A stretch of DNA of 46,637 nucleotides from the sequence record SRR20825019_236; one strand, 5' to 3'. Both the position numbers and the translations under genes were made by a program. The notes under the pieces are model-generated. The model searched no databases. It worked only from the letters and a program-made list of their open reading frames with translations, and had not been told where the DNA came from. Numbering within the stretch: the stretch's first letter is position 1; each line of letters begins with the position of its first letter. This document shows positions 3,730-11,172 of the stretch, piece by piece.

Positions 3730-3990
3730 AATGTTTATCCTGTAGATAATTAAAAATTGCCCTTAAGGGCGGGTGTAGCGTGAAACAGACCGAGATTTAG
3801 ATTACTACAGGACGATGAACAACAAAGATGCAACGAAGTGGAGAATGTAAATGAGGTTTTAATTTCTTGCTGAGTACATAATCCCCGCAATCTCAACTAA
3901 TGTCAATACATTTTTAGCTAAAAGCCTATTATGCTGCCTGCCTGGCTTGAAAAAAGGCTGCAGGTCTCGCCGCAACACGATTTCACTGGG

Positions 3991-4935
3991 TCACTCAGTC
4001 TGACTTTCTTCCGTGTTTTCTTCATCTTCAAGAATTTTATAAACCTCATCACCTTCCTGCGTCGGACGAACATCAACCGTTGATTTGTCAATCAGATGCA
4101 CACCGGAAAACACAATCGCATCGCCCAGTTTCGGCTGATAAATGATATGGGTCTCTGTTTCATCCATTTTGTAGCCGACGGTCTGCATTTTATAGCGAAC
4201 ATAGGGGTAAAAGCCCTGAACGGTAATGACCTCGCTGGAATAACGGGGGTAGGGCGTGGCGACATCGGTCATCATCAGTTTGACGGCTTTTTCCAGGTTT
4301 TGAGCAATGTTGTCTTCAAAGGCCTGGCCGTCATTGGCCGCCCAGCCGTTTTCACCTGAAAAAGGTCTGGCGGGGCCCGAGGACGAGATATAACGGGTCC
4401 ACCAGATATCGGTATTGGCTCTCGGATCTTTCAGTGCAGCCTGCAGCAGCACATAGGGTTTTACATCGGTCTCATTCTCATAAGTCAGAATCACCGCTGT
4501 TTTCACGTTTAACACCGGCGTACGCGGCGTCTGGTAGTCCGTATAGTGATAGGCAAACTCGGGCTGGGTGATTAACTCATCGGCAATCGCATCGGCCGCC
4601 TCGGTCAACTTAAACTGCAGCATCGCTTCAGTGTCGGTGATAGCCGATTCTGCACTTTCAGCATCAATGGCGCTTTGTAAAGAAAGCCCTATCGGCCCCA
4701 GCACCGAACCAACCCAGCTATTTGACTGATGGCCAGAGATAATCACCTGGCTCTCAGGCACCCGATGCACGCCCCCGGGCAAATCAAAAAATCCGGAGAG
4801 GCTTTCATCCGTGAACTGAATAGCAATGTCTTCTGATTGTGACGGGGCGGGCAGGATCGTGGTGGAGGTGCAGGCCATCACCTGAGTCAAAATGACAGCG
4901 ATAAGAATATTTCTAATGCTTAGAAAAAGTTTCAT
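3991..4935 (-). CDS. Putative lipoprotein, unknown function
   Basis: Signal peptide ending in lipobox-like VMAC; 314-aa ORF. Confidence 0.65.
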   Translation of the reverse strand: MKLFLSIRNILIAVILTQVMACTSTTILPAPSQSEDIAIQFTDESLSGFFDLPGGVHRVPESQVIISGHQSNSWVGSVLGPIGLSLQSAIDAESAESAITDTEAMLQFKLTEAADAIADELITQPEFAYHYTDYQTPRTPVLNVKTAVILTYENETDVKPYVLLQAALKDPRANTDIWWTRYISSSGPARPFSGENGWAANDGQAFEDNIAQNLEKAVKLMMTDVATPYPRYSSEVITVQGFYPYVRYKMQTVGYKMDETETHIIYQPKLGDAIVFSGVHLIDKSTVDVRPTQEGDEVYKILEDEENTEESQTE

Positions 4936-5549: not shown

Positions 5550-6641
5550 ATGAATAACCCAAACAATACGTCTGAAAGCCAGAAAACATCCGAGTCTGAC
5601 AACCAGCAGCCAGACAATCATAGCAGCGTGAATGATGCTTCCAGCAAATCACGGCATGGCTTTAGTCGATTCTGGTTGCTGTTGAGCCTGTTATCAATAC
5701 TTATCGTGCTTTTTACTGTGCGTGAAGAGCTTCGCCGCGATGCGCTTCAGACGGGCAAAAATGCATTTAGTTATGTTGCTTTTGATGTGCTGGGCTGGTC
5801 ACCACGGGATATTTTTATCTGGCGTCTGCGGTTTGCTGGCTTGCGGGATAGTCCACTGGGACAGCGGTGGGCAAATGCCGTTGAGCGTGCAAATGAAAAT
5901 GCAGTGCAAACCGGCCGGCAATACAGCACAGTCACAGACTTTGCGAGTGATGAGGTTGAAGCCCATGTTTATCAGGTGTCACTGGAGCGAGGCGAAAAGC
6001 TGATCTGGCAACTTGATCGTCTGGATGAGCAAGGCCATCGGCTTTACGCCAGCCTGGAACGGCGCGAAAGTGAAGGCGAGGAATGGTCAACTGTTAAGGA
6101 GCTGGAAGCTGGTGAAACGGCCGCAAGTCAGCTGATAGCCCAAACCGGCGATTATCGATTTGTGCTGCAACCGGAATTATTTGGCCGCGCCGAATATTCA
6201 CTGGCGGTTGCGAATGGCGGTTCATTGCCATTTCCCGTGGAATCTGCGTCGCAACGCGATATCGGCAGCAAGTTCGGTGCACCTCGTGATGGTGGTGCCA
6301 GAGCGCATCATGGCGTGGATATCTTTGCAGAAAAGGGAGCCCCGGTCACAGCCGTGATTGAGGGTCATGTCCGAACCGGCACCGGTGGCATTGGAGGTAA
6401 ACACATCTGGCTTTCTGGTGGCCTATTCGGCCTTGGCAGTGCCCGTTACTACTACGCCCATCTGGATTCATTTGCAGTTGAATCCGGTGACCAAGTTAAA
6501 CAAGGCGAAGTTATCGGTTATGTGGGCAACACCGGCAATGCCAAAACTACGCCACCGCATCTTCACTTTGGGATTTACTCGGGTGGGCCGGTTGATCCGG
6601 CGCCGTTTTTGAGACCAGAGCCCCTGTTGCCTGATCGCTAA
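5550..6641 (+). CDS. Membrane-anchored M23 family metallopeptidase
   Basis: HHGVD, YAHL, GYVGNTGN, HLHF motifs; N-terminal TM helix. Confidence 0.9.
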   Translation: MNNPNNTSESQKTSESDNQQPDNHSSVNDASSKSRHGFSRFWLLLSLLSILIVLFTVREELRRDALQTGKNAFSYVAFDVLGWSPRDIFIWRLRFAGLRDSPLGQRWANAVERANENAVQTGRQYSTVTDFASDEVEAHVYQVSLERGEKLIWQLDRLDEQGHRLYASLERRESEGEEWSTVKELEAGETAASQLIAQTGDYRFVLQPELFGRAEYSLAVANGGSLPFPVESASQRDIGSKFGAPRDGGARAHHGVDIFAEKGAPVTAVIEGHVRTGTGGIGGKHIWLSGGLFGLGSARYYYAHLDSFAVESGDQVKQGEVIGYVGNTGNAKTTPPHLHFGIYSGGPVDPAPFLRPEPLLPDR

Positions 6642-6692
6642 GCCACGAGTGACGCATACAGGGCAGCAGGCTCGGTCAATGGTCTCGTCTTA

Positions 6693-7334
6693 TTATATCG
6701 CTTCCGTATAGTAATATTCACCATTATTGCTATCATTGGTTATTATGTAGTAGATGTTGTCTATAGCTACGCATGTACCAAATGAAAGACACGAAGCTAT
6801 TCTAAGTTTTGCAGCTTCAAAATTGTGTTCATATGGATATGATTTATTTGCCTCAAGCCCCTTTAATATTGGATAAATAGCCAGCCAGATATCAACTATG
6901 TATTGATGGTCTTTATGGAATGACATGATCTGCTCAATAATATCTTGTCTAGTCAGGACTGAGTTATTAAGAAAGCGGAAATTTTTATCAATATAATCTT
7001 TAATGGAAACCCCATCTTCATAATCTTTTTCAAGATGGTTTTCTAGCTTGCTTATGTAAAAGTCAATATCTTCACGGGCGCAACTAATAAATGCTTGATC
7101 GTATTGGTGTTTACTCATCGCGCGCTGAATTAGTAATTGAATGACTAGTATAAACAAAGCTACAAGTGCTATGAGCGGAGAATATATTCCTGATAAAAAT
7201 GAGCCAAACTCAGACCAATGGGATTGTTTACTAGATAGTGATATACCAAATTGATATACATAGAGTAATAGCGGTAGCAAAAGGGTGCTGACCGCTAGAG
7301 TGATAATTAGAACTTGCTTAGCTTTTATTCTCAA
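6693..7334 (-). CDS. Cassette ORF: 2-TM membrane protein, putative Abi-like
   Basis: N-terminal WSEFGSFLSGIYSPLIALVALFILVIQ resembles the putAbiC-type N-terminus; AT-rich. Confidence 0.55.
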   Translation of the reverse strand: MRIKAKQVLIITLAVSTLLLPLLLYVYQFGISLSSKQSHWSEFGSFLSGIYSPLIALVALFILVIQLLIQRAMSKHQYDQAFISCAREDIDFYISKLENHLEKDYEDGVSIKDYIDKNFRFLNNSVLTRQDIIEQIMSFHKDHQYIVDIWLAIYPILKGLEANKSYPYEHNFEAAKLRIASCLSFGTCVAIDNIYYIITNDSNNGEYYYTEAI

Positions 7335-7348
7335 ATTATTAAGTACCT

Positions 7349-7447
7349 GTATAGCAATTTGCTAAGTGACAGCCGAAACGCAGCGTAGCCTGTCCCTTGG
7401 AGGGCGCGGCTTTTGCAGCTGGAACGTACCTGAGCAACTTGTTATAA
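7349..7447 (-). mobile_element. Degenerate attC site 1
   Basis: Minus strand: TTATAAC (R'') AAG TTGCTCAGG (L'') ... CTTAGCAA (L') ATT GCTATAC (R' with GTT>GCT). Confidence 0.75.
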
Positions 7448-7924
7448 CGCTTTGAAATAGCCATTATGAGAGAGCTGCAATGTTCTCAATAAGGGGTACT
7501 GCTCAGGTATTGCATTTTTTGCGACAATGCCACAAGCAACTATTTTTTCACGTATTTCAGCTAATAGTTCATCAATTGATACGATTTTGGCTCCTGCAAG
7601 AAAGTCGCGACCTCTAGGGTGGGAAGTAAGCACGGCCACTTGCTCAATTTCTATATCTGACTCAAGCCAGGTAAAAACCTCACTGAGAATATACTTCCTT
7701 GCAGAGGTAAATTTTTTAGTGAATCTTTCTTCTCGCGTTGTCCATGAATGAGCATCAAGTGATGGTTCAAGATGTATCAAATGACCTGTATGAGGATCGA
7801 AGGCTATGACATCTAACTCCATTTCCCAGCCACCATGGCTAAGCTTCCCTACCTTGATATTTCGTTTTACCAAGTAGCCTTTCCAGTCGTAGTATTCAGC
7901 TATCAAATTTTCTAAGTGAGACAT
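7442..7924 (-). CDS. Cassette ORF: PD-(D/E)XK restriction-endonuclease-like protein
   Basis: LENLIAEYY..KGY.V.RN ... ELDVIA ... HLEPS pattern; bounded by GTTACAAC (7943-7936) and GTTATAAC (7448-7441). Confidence 0.6.
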   Translation of the reverse strand: MSHLENLIAEYYDWKGYLVKRNIKVGKLSHGGWEMELDVIAFDPHTGHLIHLEPSLDAHSWTTREERFTKKFTSARKYILSEVFTWLESDIEIEQVAVLTSHPRGRDFLAGAKIVSIDELLAEIREKIVACGIVAKNAIPEQYPLLRTLQLSHNGYFKAL

Positions 7925-7935
7925 GACTTCCCTGA

Positions 7936-7980
7936 GTTGTAACGACGCTCAGCACACAGCTAGAGAATGGAAGCGAAGCT
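7936..7980 (-). mobile_element. Right half of a truncated attC
   Basis: Minus strand GCTTCGCTTCCATTCTCTAGC..TGAGCGTC-GTTACAAC; R' nearly complementary to the R'' ending the same cassette. Confidence 0.55.
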
Positions 7981-8017
7981 GCAAATTAGGAATCAAGCTG
8001 GCTGACCCCTTGATTCC

Positions 8018-8170
8018 TTCCTCAACATTTTCTCTGATCATATAAGCTTTCTTGAAGACTTCATTTCTTTTGTCCAGAGTGTTTGTGAGGTGTGAACGAC
8101 GATACTGATACTATGTAAAGGCTTAAACTGAACACCGAGATGAGCAATGCAACTAGCGAAATGCCTATGT
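8018..8170 (-). pseudogene. Frameshifted, truncated cassette remnant
   Basis: IGISLVALLISVFSL continues in another frame as FT*YQYRRSHLTNTLDKRNEVFKKAYMIRENVEE, directly after attC2. Confidence 0.45.
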
Positions 8171-8185
8171 TCTACCTCAGTTGGT

Positions 8186-8258
8186 TGCTTAGGCCCAAAG
8201 CAGCGGGCTCAAAACTGGACACAGACATTTTGATGTCCGCTGCCTTTCCTGGTTACGA
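8186..8258 (-). mobile_element. Degenerate attC site 2
   Basis: TCGTAAC (R'', holds stop codon) CAGGA AAGGCAGCGG ... CCGCTGCTT TGGGC CTAAGCA; one bulged base in the L''/L' stem; R' mutated. Confidence 0.7.
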
Positions 8259-8753
8259 GGAAAGTTCAATTTCTGTCTGCCAGTTTTCTAACTTCTCAAA
8301 AACCGCGCCTAGTGATGCAAATTTAGGTACTGATAATTCTGTTAAAACACCCGAGAGAGGATAGTCTAAGTCTATAGGAAAGCCTACAGATTCAAACGTT
8401 TTTTCAATTAATTCTCGCCGTTTTAGTGTTTTTTCAAATGACCATTCGTTATAGTGTTTCCAATAGTTAGCGGCATCATTAACAATTTTTACGATTGTGT
8501 TGCCGTTAGAGTGTTTTGGGCCAAGTTTCAACACGGTTTTCTTTTCGATTTCTAATAATCCATAAACAGCTGTAATGTATGCTTGTAATGTTACGAAACC
8601 CAAACCAGTTAGATGCTCAGCACTATCAAAAATCCCTATTGAATCTGGATCTGGAACCTCGTTACATTCATTTACTATCTCGTCGAGTTTCCTGTCTAAC
8701 GTTTCGATTAGTTCTTTAGTAAGCTTGTGTTCATTGAACAATATTGCGTGCAT
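8253..8753 (-). CDS. Cassette ORF: helical protein, possible HEPN-like RNase
   Basis: AANYWKH motif; start moved to the ATG at 8753 because the TTG at 8774 lies inside attC3. Confidence 0.5.
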   Translation of the reverse strand: MHAILFNEHKLTKELIETLDRKLDEIVNECNEVPDPDSIGIFDSAEHLTGLGFVTLQAYITAVYGLLEIEKKTVLKLGPKHSNGNTIVKIVNDAANYWKHYNEWSFEKTLKRRELIEKTFESVGFPIDLDYPLSGVLTELSVPKFASLGAVFEKLENWQTEIELSS

Positions 8754-8760
8754 TTTTACG

Positions 8761-8872
8761 TTGTAAGACTTCAATAAGTTGCTCTGACATGTGTACGAAA
8801 ATGGCGAAGCTGACCGCGAGTTTATGTCTTAGGCTTGCTGCCTGACATGTGACTTAATTGACTTGCTTAGCC
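8761..8872 (-). mobile_element. Degenerate attC site 3
   Basis: GGCTAAG(C) AAG TCAATTAAGT ... ACTTATTGA AGT CTTACAA; L''/L' pair with one extra T; both R boxes mutated. Confidence 0.55.
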
Positions 8873-9253
8873 TGTTACCAACAAACGTAAAGCCCAATCA
8901 CCAAAGCCCCAAACAAAAGTACCTAACACAACTAATGCATGGGCCAATCTTGATGTAACTTTTTGAATTTTTGGTGGATCTATATCCCAAGGATTGTCAT
9001 TCCAAACACCTGAACGACCTTTTACTGTTTGATATATGTTGTTCATCTCTATTCGTACTAAAGAATACTCAGCCATTACAGCAAAAAGAACAATTAATGC
9101 ACCAAATCGCGCAAACCATATAGGGCTAACGCATATACCAAGCAATAGCCCAATAATAAAAAATATGGCTCCGAATATAATGTTTGAAATAGCGTAACTA
9201 AAATTCAAGATGCAAATCCATTTACTGAGTTGTTTGCCCGAATCAAAATCCAT
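8867..9253 (-). CDS. Cassette-like small membrane protein
   Basis: 3 hydrophobic helices, AT-rich, stop at the attC3 R'' position. Confidence 0.65.
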   Translation of the reverse strand: MDFDSGKQLSKWICILNFSYAISNIIFGAIFFIIGLLLGICVSPIWFARFGALIVLFAVMAEYSLVRIEMNNIYQTVKGRSGVWNDNPWDIDPPKIQKVTSRLAHALVVLGTFVWGFGDWALRLLVTG

Positions 9254-9391
9254 CAAAATAACAATGTCGCTCCCCTGCTGTTTTGTGAACTATTTCACGA
9301 TCAATAAGATAGCGCAACTCTACCAGGCAATAGGACGCTTGTTAGCCACCCATAGTGAGGCTAGTAATAAATCAAGGATAGTTGTTAATTG

Positions 9392-9778
9392 TTATCCGCT
9401 GAGTTTAAGAAAAACACTGGCATAGGCCCAGATGATTGAGCCGGAAATAACGCAGATATGGGCTGCCCATTTCAATAACCTTCGATGCAGTGCAAAGGAA
9501 AAGATTGCTTCTCCCTCACCATCGGAGGAGTGCAAAATGGATTTGTTGATAGCGATTTTTTCGTACCAGTTGTGGCGGTACTCAACGATAAGACCGGCAA
9601 TAACCAGAATCGCGCCGGAGGGGCCGATGAGGTTGATATCCGGGTAGCTCGGATTGAGATAGATTGAAATCAGCACCACGCCCAATCCCAGCATCACAAT
9701 GGCTCCATCGAGAACAGAGTGGTGCCAGCGGTTGCCGGGGAGCCAAGCAGGTACTGTAAGGTGCCTGGTTTGATCCAT
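9392..9778 (-). CDS. Small membrane protein, homolog of the adjacent 8867-9253 ORF
   Basis: AGGAG RBS before ATG 9778; SGAILVIAGLIVEY and AHICVISGSIIWAYA motifs. Confidence 0.65.
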   Translation of the reverse strand: MDQTRHLTVPAWLPGNRWHHSVLDGAIVMLGLGVVLISIYLNPSYPDINLIGPSGAILVIAGLIVEYRHNWYEKIAINKSILHSSDGEGEAIFSFALHRRLLKWAAHICVISGSIIWAYASVFLKLSG

Positions 9779-9954
9779 GATAGCTAACACTCCTTTGAGC
9801 CTGATTTTGTCACTGGCTCATTGATTTGTCAGGTATTCAATTGAACGAACTCACTCAAATTAAACTGGGGCAGTATTCCCAAATGGCAAACTTGCATCGC
9901 CTTATCTGCATGAGAGGATTTCAGGCAGATAACTCCACCGATATTTTTCTCTGA

Positions 9955-11172
9955 TTATTCTGCCGCTTTTTGATGTGCTTCCCGAATAGGGCCTTGAGCC
10001 ATAATCCAGGTGATCACCAGAAAGACCAGCATGCCGAGCAAAATAGACTGGAACTGTACACCGGCATCAATCATAAAACCCAGAAAGGCGGGTGCGACAC
10101 CAGTGGAAAACACCAGAAACGCTGATTTGAGAGAGCGAACCTGGCCCAGATGCTCACGGCCCCAGAGTCTGACCAGCAGGCTGTCGCCGATAGGAGACGA
10201 CATACCCAATGCGGTACCGGCACCGAGCATAATGATCCAGATGGCGATATTGCCGCCAATTAAGGCTGCCGCCAGCAGCGCGACGGCGAAGGGCACCAGA
10301 TAGAGTTTGGCGAGCGTGGTGACACCGAGTTCGTCAATCCAGCGGCCACCGAGTAAGGCACCAGGGAAACGGGAAATACCGAGGCCGGTCAGAGCTAGGG
10401 CATAGTTGGTGGCCGTTGCACCCAGATCTTCGGTCATCTGTGCCTGATAGATAAAAATACCGGTGAGGGTGATGGGCAGCACCATCAGCATCGGGATCAG
10501 CATCCAGAAGCGGCGTTCACGCATCGGCGAAGGGCCTTTTTCCTGCGGTTCGTTTTTGCTCTTTTTCTTTCTGGGCGCTTCAGGCCAGTCAACGAACAGG
10601 ATAAGGAAAACCCACATCACCAGTAAGACGGCAGCAATACTCCACCAGATTTGTTGCCAGGTCAGCCAGGTGACGAGCAGGGCAATCACCGGTGGCAGAA
10701 TGATTTCACCGGAGGGCATGCCGAGGCTGACCAGACCTAAAGCCCGGCCCCGGTTCAAAGTAAACTCGCGGCCGGCCAGAGTACTGCCCAGATGGGTCAT
10801 CAGGCCCTGACCACAGAGCCGTTGCAGACCCAAGCCGAAGATAGCGAGCCCCCACCACGGTGACAGGGTCAGCATTAAGACACCGATGATCAGCGTCGAC
10901 AGCACTATCAGGGCATAGCGTCTGGGTGCAATCCAGTCGATCTTGGGGCCGAAGTGCATCACCAGAAAACCGCTGGTCATGGTAATGGCGGCATAGATGC
11001 TGCCGAATTCACCGGCCGTGATGTTCAGATGCTGACTGATATCCGACTGAAACAGGCCGATAAAAAAGCTCTGGCCCAGGTTGCCGGTAAAGACCGCCAG
11101 CCAGGCAGCAGCAATTAAACCAAAATGCCGACGTAACAAGCCGGCATAGCCAAGACGAATGTCTGAATCCAT
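9955..11172 (-). CDS. MFS transporter
   Basis: About 12 TM segments; GPKIDW and GRWIDELG motif-A variants. Confidence 0.9.
   Translation of the reverse strand: MDSDIRLGYAGLLRRHFGLIAAAWLAVFTGNLGQSFFIGLFQSDISQHLNITAGEFGSIYAAITMTSGFLVMHFGPKIDWIAPRRYALIVLSTLIIGVLMLTLSPWWGLAIFGLGLQRLCGQGLMTHLGSTLAGREFTLNRGRALGLVSLGMPSGEIILPPVIALLVTWLTWQQIWWSIAAVLLVMWVFLILFVDWPEAPRKKKSKNEPQEKGPSPMRERRFWMLIPMLMVLPITLTGIFIYQAQMTEDLGATATNYALALTGLGISRFPGALLGGRWIDELGVTTLAKLYLVPFAVALLAAALIGGNIAIWIIMLGAGTALGMSSPIGDSLLVRLWGREHLGQVRSLKSAFLVFSTGVAPAFLGFMIDAGVQFQSILLGMLVFLVITWIMAQGPIREAHQKAAE

Follow-up and report, generated by a model that had tools for sequence, protein, structure and literature searches.

According to the published accounts, attC site clusters that have no integron integrase (CALINs) are common and mostly small, 95% of them have no pseudogene of the integrase gene intI nearby, and they may arise through integration at secondary sites or through rearrangement; fewer than six sites are given for 83% of them in one such account (10.1101/030866). 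Integron integrases have also been described to place cassettes at genomic attG sites that contain GWT (Loot et al. 2023, 10.1101/2022.09.11.507474). In this work we analyzed a stretch of DNA of 46,637 nucleotides (sequence record SRR20825019_236), referred to as a whole as the window, in which a block at around positions 6650-9260 was read as the remnant of an integron cassette array, placed in a chromosomal housekeeping region and made up of four cassettes plus a stretch devoid of open reading frames (ORFs). We give this reading a probability of roughly 75%.

The block resembles CALINs, as these are described (10.1101/030866), in its co-oriented promoterless chromosomal cassettes, in the lack of an integrase nearby, in its small size, and in the absence of known functions. 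It differs from them in that the definition asks for at least two attC sites detected by a model within 4 kb, whereas no site of the block passed at E < 0.01 when the whole window was searched with our own covariance models, and conserved triplets are mutated. The block was therefore filed as a degraded array, and the label of CALIN under which a preliminary description of this DNA had placed it was given up. With single attC sites lacking integron integrases (SALINs) and attG insertions it shares cassettes lying outside integrons among ordinary genes, possibly placed at 5'-GWT-3' (10.1101/2022.09.11.507474), and the locus with the closest relative of one of its genes, ORF2 (94%), resembles a single insertion. 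The difference is that the block holds several cassette-sized units in place of one, and that the junction after the attC of ORF2 reads G|CT, not GWT.

The evidence that carries this reading comes mainly from ORF2 (7442-7924, minus strand; 160 amino acids), a gene conserved across many phyla. Homologs amounted to 761 (E ≤ 0.001), with 60-98% identity across named organisms, and their named hosts include Alloalcanivorax, Aliivibrio, Halomonas, Vibrio, and a metagenome-assembled genome (MAG) of Bacteroidetes. A genome scan with the ORF2-family alignment (A1) gave 25 loci (451 kb), ranging from Gammaproteobacteria to Terriglobia, Planctomycetota, Chloroflexi, and a spirochaete. In 10 of these 25 loci (L001-L007, L010, L011, and L015) the homolog was flanked by attC sites, that is, the gene sits inside attC arrays of unrelated genomes. 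Most of the ten presented GTTATAAC-tcagggaagtc-ATG upstream of the homolog, with small variations (L010 differs); the stop codon also lay inside GTTATAAC in most of them and was followed by a structured element ending in GTTAkry. The flank layout in L001-L007, L011, and L015 is the anatomy of an integron cassette. The arrays of L003 (Neptuniibacter sp.), L004, L005, L006 (Halomonas ramblicola), L010, L011, and L015 (Marinomonas aquimarina) have the same gene and the same boundaries as the window, and L001, L002, and L003 have the same attC as its ORF2 cassette. In contrast, the attC sites in these arrays are intact, with 24.5-72.4 bits in the first of our covariance models (R1), as compared to 4.9 bits for the window copy.

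The ORF2 cassette unit of the window (7355-7942, minus strand; 588 nt) runs from TTACAAC through the G of the R' box, and ORF2 is bounded by GTTACAAC (7943-7936) and GTTATAAC (7448-7441), as had been stated before. When the window was compared by blastn with all loci, matches were obtained at 7358-7946 (L002, 85.7%), 7359-7944 (L003), and 7382-7943 (L001), and the rest of the 46.6-kb window had no match to the 25 loci. Similarity begins at G|TTACAAC (7943-7936) and stops at R' (7355-7349), so that it comprises exactly one cassette of 588 nt. The same beginning was seen in an alignment of eight sequences (A7), where likeness starts at GTTAyAAC and the sequences upstream are unrelated; homology with other copies of ORF2 thus ends at the G|TT recombination points. 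Most differences in ORF2 fell on third codon positions (45 of 56 with L001, 50 of 65 with L002, and 68 of 95 with L003), which indicated that the gene was kept by selection. The attC was less conserved (64-79% identity to L001-L003) than ORF2 itself (80-88%). At one time ORF2 was thus a mobile cassette, made up of a promoterless gene and of an attC that the integron integrase recombines at G|TT.

The remaining ORFs of the block, ORF1, ORF3, and ORF4, lie on the minus strand as ORF2 does. The four ORFs displayed GC contents of 0.34-0.40 and GC contents at third codon positions (GC3) of 0.29-0.35, far under those of neighbouring genes (0.50-0.56), and in the low-GC block (6650-9260) the values for 1-kb segments drop to 0.39-0.41 vs. 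about 0.52 for the whole window. The intergenic pieces of the block have a higher GC content than the ORFs (0.45-0.59). Stop codons of the four ORFs sit in ATATAAT, TTATAAC, TCGTAAC, and GGCTAAG, and the units delimited in the block have cassette-like sizes of about 500, 580, 245, 588, and 710 nt, with the stops within R''-like boxes as in L026, a Pseudoalteromonas replicon considered below. The preliminary description had reported these boxes together with four AT-rich co-oriented ORFs and a pseudogene; the boxes were all present and the ORFs agreed with it, but the pseudogene was not supported. It corresponds to an ORF-less stretch (7992-8192, minus strand) within a gap of 328 nt (7925-8252), which contains no minus-strand ORF of at least 40 amino acids and whose translations (X at stops) had no match in the 25 fetched loci. 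In tblastn searches of ORF1, ORF3, ORF4, ORF5 (a gene next to the block), and the ORF-less stretch against the same loci, nothing appeared below E = 0.27.

No integrase, transposase, or other recombinase domain was found among the 42 + 7 window ORFs scanned for domains, in agreement with the earlier statement that the window holds no intI; going by these scans, neither the 6.6 kb to one side of the block nor the 37 kb to the other encode an integrase. A complete integron was not found, with no intI in the window and attI and Pc not searched for. The remaining window is ordinary chromosome, with recR, dnaX, aat, ate, dsbB, ggt, a two-component system, and others.

Sites were searched for with covariance models whose seed was selected by a heuristic attC finder (AAC...GTT plus hairpin energy). 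This finder was used solely to choose seeds (21 sites from 8 loci, alignment A2); as a detector it wrongly called many sites within coding DNA, failed to pick up L001-L003, and was discarded. Since RNAalifold yielded no structure on the seed alignment, the canonical attC structure was written by hand: R'' pairs with R', the spacer is left unpaired, the L stem contains a bulged base, and the bulged A of GGAC lies in a second stem. This hand-set structure paired 86.2% of the A2 cells vs. 68.9% after the columns had been shuffled, and none of 500 such shuffles came up to it. Sliding the partner by 1-3 columns left 30-46% of cells paired, and ten pairs change on both sides. The structure of the seed attC sites is real.

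The seed of R1 contained the sites that follow the ORF2 homologs in L004 and L015, which have the R'' box in common but not the inner sequence. With this model the 25 loci yielded 84 matches (E ≤ 1), every one on the same strand as the ORF2 homolog, distributed as 1 in L001, 2 in L002, 10 in L003, 5 in L004, 4 in L005, 7 in L006, 3 in L007, 38 in L010, 10 in L011, and 4 in L015, and 0 in the other 15 loci. Scores of the loci sites ranged from 17 to 72 bits, and ORF2-type attCs outside the seed reached 34.9 (L001), 31.6 (L002), and 28.9 bits (L003). A second model, R2, was rebuilt from all 84 sites, so that its training set consisted partly of ORF2-type attCs. In the A2/A3 attC sites, which come from unrelated genomes, the GAC after the first L stem (GGAC with the bulged A) was nearly invariant; no other inner feature of the loci sites is as conserved, and both of the best remnants of the window keep it.

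The two top matches of R2 among nine in the whole window were 7349-7447 (minus strand; 15.0 bits, E = 0.16) and 8193-8250 (minus strand; 11.4 bits, E = 1.4), and the ninth was 9312-9347 (minus strand; 8.2 bits). Although 93 kb of strand were searched, both top matches come from the block, where they lie on the coding strand and immediately 3' of ORF2 and ORF3. When R1 was run on 6600-9450, the minus strand gave 8193-8250 (9.1 bits), 9256-9347 (7.2 bits), and 7349-7447 (4.9 bits); three matches on the plus strand, inside ORF3 and with 3.8-6.0 bits, are presumably noise. In addition, six intergenic pieces were folded as single-stranded DNA on both strands and compared with 200 shuffles, and for four of the six the z value was around 0 on both strands.

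The degenerate attC of the ORF2 cassette (7349-7447, minus strand; 99 nt) has TTATAAC as R'' (7447-7441), which holds the stop codon of ORF2, and GCTATAC as R' (7355-7349). In alignment A6 it was homologous over its full length to the attC sites of L001, L002, and L003, with TTATAAC, GCTCA, GGAC, and TTAGC invariant, and it retains the R'' box, the bulged C, and the GGAC motif. The second position of R' is C only in the window (GCTA), as compared to GTTA in L001-L003 and GTT in 21 of the 21 seed sites. This stretch had been put forward as an attC-like palindrome; the homology to attC was confirmed, but not the palindrome as a stable fold, given that the piece 7335-7455 folded no better than its shuffles (z +0.06/-0.10).

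After ORF3, a palindrome had been noted at 8186-8258. The piece 8180-8265 was the sole one that folded better than shuffles (z -4.9/-4.0; 0 of 200 shuffles as stable), and its attC-core-like hairpin (8193-8258, minus strand) comprises an R''-like TCGTAAC (8258-8252), which holds the stop codon of ORF3, and a stem with the GGAC bulge. The hairpin at 8193-8250 matched the inner model positions 9-56 only, including CAGCGGAC, which is the conserved GGAC with its bulged A, and TCGTAAC stands correctly spaced upstream of it. No R' box follows this hairpin, CTAAGCA being found in place of GTTRRRY, and hence the hairpin was upheld there, with its match to the inner part of the attC model, but not the complete site. 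Its interpretation as a terminator was dropped, as no minus-strand terminator was listed there in a simple scan. A second small hairpin, CTTTCCTGGTTACGAGGAAAG (8244-8264), adjoins the attC-core hairpin, spans the ORF3 stop codon, and has a terminator-like score on the plus strand.

Upstream of the ORF2 cassette, a possible remnant of another attC (7937-7991, minus strand) has an intact R' (GTTACAA), whose position is set by the boundary of the ORF2 cassette, and an R''-like TCCTAAT; it scored 2.3 bits in a search of 7925-8200 alone, which is not significant. Further manual pairings of R''- and R'-like boxes (around 8190-8105 and 8010-7937) had no model support and were abandoned. A third attC candidate of the preliminary description (8761-8872, minus strand; R''-like GGCTAAG and R'-like (C)TTACAAC) was rejected, with fold z values of -1.35/-0.76 for 8755-8885, at most 1.4 bits when 8745-8895 was searched alone, and no place among the R1 and R2 matches. 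The candidate at 6640-6700 gave at most 0.3 bits when 6600-6720 was searched alone. Between ORF5 and ORF4 there is an attC-like site in its R boxes only (9256-9347, minus strand; GGCTAAC...GTTATTT), which was not significant and is a possible upstream edge of the block. In the region 6000-10500, an Rfam scan at E ≤ 10 returned only a chance snoRNA match, and the simple terminator scan found no minus-strand terminator-like site after ORF1-4.

For two other genes of the block, relatives were found in cassettes elsewhere. ORF1 (6693-7334, minus strand; 213 amino acids, GC 0.343) is the last gene of the block and encodes two N-terminal transmembrane helices and a soluble domain. Its 30 homologs were nearly all metagenomic, one being from Vibrio cholerae, and tblastn against a plasmid collection revealed a relative with 23% identity on a Vibrio parahaemolyticus plasmid (L027). 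The ORF1 family and the protein of this plasmid cassette matched in hhalign at 99.4% (E 1.5e-21), and R2 placed attC matches on both sides of its coding sequence (3941-4600), at 3793-3923 and 4602-4716. ORF3 (8253-8774, minus strand; 173 amino acids) encodes an all-alpha protein with an invariant AANYWKH, and its probable start is the ATG at 8753 because homologs begin there. All 81 homologs were unnamed or annotated as "hypothetical protein," none with an organism name; a relative (34% identity, tblastn E 6e-17) was located at 5881-6444 of L026, on a 1.24-Mb replicon of Pseudoalteromonas sp. NC201, between R2 matches at 5792-5904 and 6439-6564. The attC matches flanking the relatives of ORF1 and ORF3 had E values of 1e-3 to 7e-9, and in both L026 and L027 these relatives belong to runs of co-oriented ORFs in which an attC site comes after every ORF. 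ORF4 (8867-9256, minus strand; 129 amino acids, GC 0.362), the first low-GC gene of the block, encodes a small multi-pass membrane protein. Its family comprised 113 cluster representatives (E ≤ 0.001) with lengths of about 105-120 amino acids, and a weak match was found on Photobacterium damselae plasmids (31.6% identity, E 8e-4). The expectation that homologs of the block genes are flanked by attC sites was therefore borne out for ORF2 in 10 of its 25 loci, and for ORF1 and ORF3 through one distant homolog each, but not for ORF4. Together with the homology of the ORF2 unit and the mutated, sub-threshold sites, the attC-flanked homologs of ORF1 and ORF3 support what had been proposed, a decaying cassette block away from its integron.

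On one side the block is followed by a gene for an M23 peptidase (5550-6641, plus strand; GC 0.53) and on the other by ORF5 (9392-9790, minus strand; 132 amino acids, GC 0.499, GC3 0.579) and a gene for an MFS transporter (9955-11172, minus strand; GC 0.56). ORF5 belongs to the ORF4 family (hhalign of alignment A8 vs. ORF5, 97.3%, E 2.2e-11), and the two are adjacent paralogs with sharply different GC contents (0.36 in ORF4 vs. 0.50 in ORF5). ORF5 would then be a cassette of greater age or of another source, or else a foreign paralog landed beside a native one. ORF5 likely starts at an ATG at 9778, and a GTTAGCT box stands 3 nt ahead of it.

The loci with ORF2 homologs varied in their setting. 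L001 (9900-10570), from a Spongiibacteraceae MAG, contains the closest relative of ORF2 (94% amino acid identity), with one attC match and with GTTATAC-aaat-GTTATAAC upstream; its neighbours are a gene for an AraC-family regulator and cytochrome c peroxidase genes. The appearance is that of one cassette inserted into a chromosome with a GC content (0.53) similar to that of the window. At the other end of the scale, 38 attC matches were present in 20 kb of L010 (1-20480), from the chromosome of a Candidatus Azotimanducaceae MAG (OZ245781.1), with near-identical sites GCCTAAC...GTTAGGC of 76, 96, and 114 nt and an ORF2 homolog of 71% identity; this array evidently belongs to a large sedentary integron of that chromosome. 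Nineteen large ORFs beside the arrays of nine loci included no tyrosine recombinase, and two were rve transposases (L002 and L006), which indicated that those arrays too lie away from an integrase, among housekeeping genes. Distant homologs of ORF2 (50-73% identity; L012-L014 and L016-L025) had no attC match at E ≤ 1, and hosts of the attC-free homologs include Acinetobacter venetianus, Ramlibacter, Janthinobacterium, Terriglobia, Planctomycetota, and Chloroflexi. In L016 and L023 the frame of the homolog appears broken, homologous sequence running on past an early stop.

Several results weigh against reading the block as an array remnant. No site of the window was significant with either model in the whole-window searches (best E = 0.16, with R2), and R1 with filters off gave nothing below E = 1.6 on both strands of the whole window; with no site passing the normal threshold, the outcome comes close to the lack of attC model support named beforehand as speaking against an integron origin. 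The 15.0 bits of R2 for 7349-7447 are not independent, because this model was partly trained on ORF2-type attCs, and the attC models were those built here, not that of IntegronFinder. Neither model nor folding supported 8761-8872 and 6640-6700. In 15 of the 25 ORF2-family loci R1 found no attC match (E ≤ 1), so the family is not restricted to integrons. The cassette evidence for ORF1 and ORF3 consists of one distant homolog each (23 and 34% identity), and no attC was seen near the Photobacterium damselae relative, the sole relative of ORF4 whose DNA was examined.

Three other explanations were considered. Under one of them only ORF2 is a cassette, inserted by an integrase in a SALIN-like manner at a secondary site in or beside an ordinary low-GC islet that obtained its remaining genes in different ways. 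The direct DNA homology to cassettes, which is limited to the ORF2 unit, the scores of at most 11.4 bits for the other intergenic pieces, and the frequency of isolated cassettes (3400 SALINs vs. 2961 CALINs in the account of Loot et al., 10.1101/2022.09.11.507474) are in its favour. It does not account, however, for the GTTACAA R' box with an attC-like L' before it upstream of the ORF2 cassette, for the match of the hairpin after ORF3 to the attC core including the GGAC bulge motif, for the homologs of ORF1 and ORF3 that are cassettes elsewhere, or for the likeness of the four ORFs in orientation, low GC content, tight spacing, and stop codons within R''-like boxes, and we regard it as rather unlikely. 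The recognition of attC is structural and tolerant of sequence change, as is well established, and the block could also be a still-functional CALIN whose sites, though unusual, could be recombined by an integrase from another part of the genome. AAC or GTT is retained in the R'' box of ORF2, in that of ORF3, and in the R' at 7943-7937, and for half of the CALINs the genome is stated to encode IntI at another place (Cury et al., 10.1101/030866). Nevertheless, the best site of the window had 15 bits vs. 17-72 bits in the loci, the cleavage triplet of the ORF2 attC is GCT where the 21 seed sites all have GTT, the site after ORF3 is without R', and two candidates are without any support; a functional CALIN seems highly improbable.

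The third explanation denies any integron origin and takes the palindromes as terminators or chance and the block as a generic horizontally acquired islet. The fold values around 0 in four of six intergenic pieces on both strands, and the lack of a relevant Rfam match and of a significant covariance-model match, would fit with it. Yet it leaves unexplained a DNA homology that is exact to the cassette and includes the attC, by which it is already contradicted for ORF2, and minus-strand terminator-like sites after ORF1-4 were absent in the simple scan; we hold it to be nearly untenable.

In the array reading, which we prefer, the order of the cassettes in the reading direction (minus strand) would be ORF4, ORF3, ORF2, and ORF1. 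The array, or successive cassettes, would have been placed between the M23 peptidase gene and ORF5 with the MFS transporter gene, possibly through insertion by an integrase at a secondary attG site or through the splitting of an integron. The attC sites may then have decayed while the ORFs stayed open, in that the R' of the ORF2 cassette changed from GTT to GCT, R' was lost after ORF3, and AAG or AAT replaced AAC in other R''-like boxes. With such mutations accumulated, the cassettes are most likely frozen in place. Expression of ORF1-4, if any, would occur by read-through from upstream.

As regards function, no significant family was found for ORF1-4 in Pfam, NCBIfam, PADLOC, or PHROGs. Pfam scans of all homolog-family members revealed no shared family (0 of 30 members with a match in the case of ORF2), and PDB sequence searches with profiles of ORF1, ORF2, and ORF3 gave nothing below E = 0.2. 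The nuclease-, HEPN-, and Abi-like labels proposed earlier are accordingly kept as leads only. For ORF2, unnamed clusters were nearest in the ESM Atlas and the nearest named ones were Mrr_cat/NERD (0.83-0.87), and one homolog carries the name "NERD domain-containing" in one source, both leads toward a possible PD-(D/E)xK/NERD-like fold. The family invariants E36, D38, and E53-P-S55, with no lysine at the K position, are compatible with a putative variant PD-(D/E)xK site. The AlphaFold2 model of ORF2 was poor (predicted local distance difference test, pLDDT, 43.6) and was not used for fold search.

In contrast to ORF2, the model of ORF3 was confident (pLDDT 92.4) and all-alpha. Foldseek against PDB and BFVD gave no match at E < 0.2 (0 at E ≤ 0.001), and the HEPN toxin 7ae8 (template modelling score 0.24-0.36) and AbiV 9bj7 appeared at E 1.5-1.8 only. 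HEPN ribonucleases have a four-helix fold with an Rx4-6H motif; the invariant AANYWKH of ORF3 has no arginine and 7ae8 was reached only at E 1.5-1.7, so that placing ORF3 among the HEPN ribonucleases was not supported. The PADLOC check for defence genes returned one weak match, of ORF3 to Cas13-ApeA (E = 0.0083). The best matches of the N-terminus of ORF1 were two PHROGs with no function assigned, and 0 of 23 members of its family matched putAbiC (PF16872) at E ≤ 0.1. Leads for ORF1 in the ESM Atlas were a "DUF4760" cluster (0.97) and a putAbiC cluster (0.92, rank 23, 41% of members with putAbiC).

A defence role of ORF1-4 is thus speculation. The block shares with the integron cassettes described for phage defence (10.1101/2024.07.02.601719) small single cassette genes whose function is not known, and it differs from them in that no ORF matches a known defence family significantly. 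It might be imagined that the array was fixed because its genes are useful, that the box mutations represent domestication and not simple neglect, and that at least one of the four proteins is an undescribed single-gene anti-phage or stress system, an idea to which we attach little likelihood. The strongest candidates under domestication, named just as tentatively, would be the ORF2 family, a cassette across many phyla, and ORF3, with its confident fold and no structural relatives.

The kind of element is already described, and it comes here with four intact genes without known function. If the block is an array remnant, cassette arrays can persist in chromosomes after their attC sites have decayed beyond the reach of covariance models, and surveys based on attC would consequently miss such remnants, which homology to cassettes elsewhere can recover. 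ORF1, ORF2, and ORF3 would represent three families without Pfam assignment that travel as integron cassettes, ORF2 being unusually conserved across phyla and ORF3 having a confident predicted fold without structural relative, and they are reasonable candidates for functional screens.

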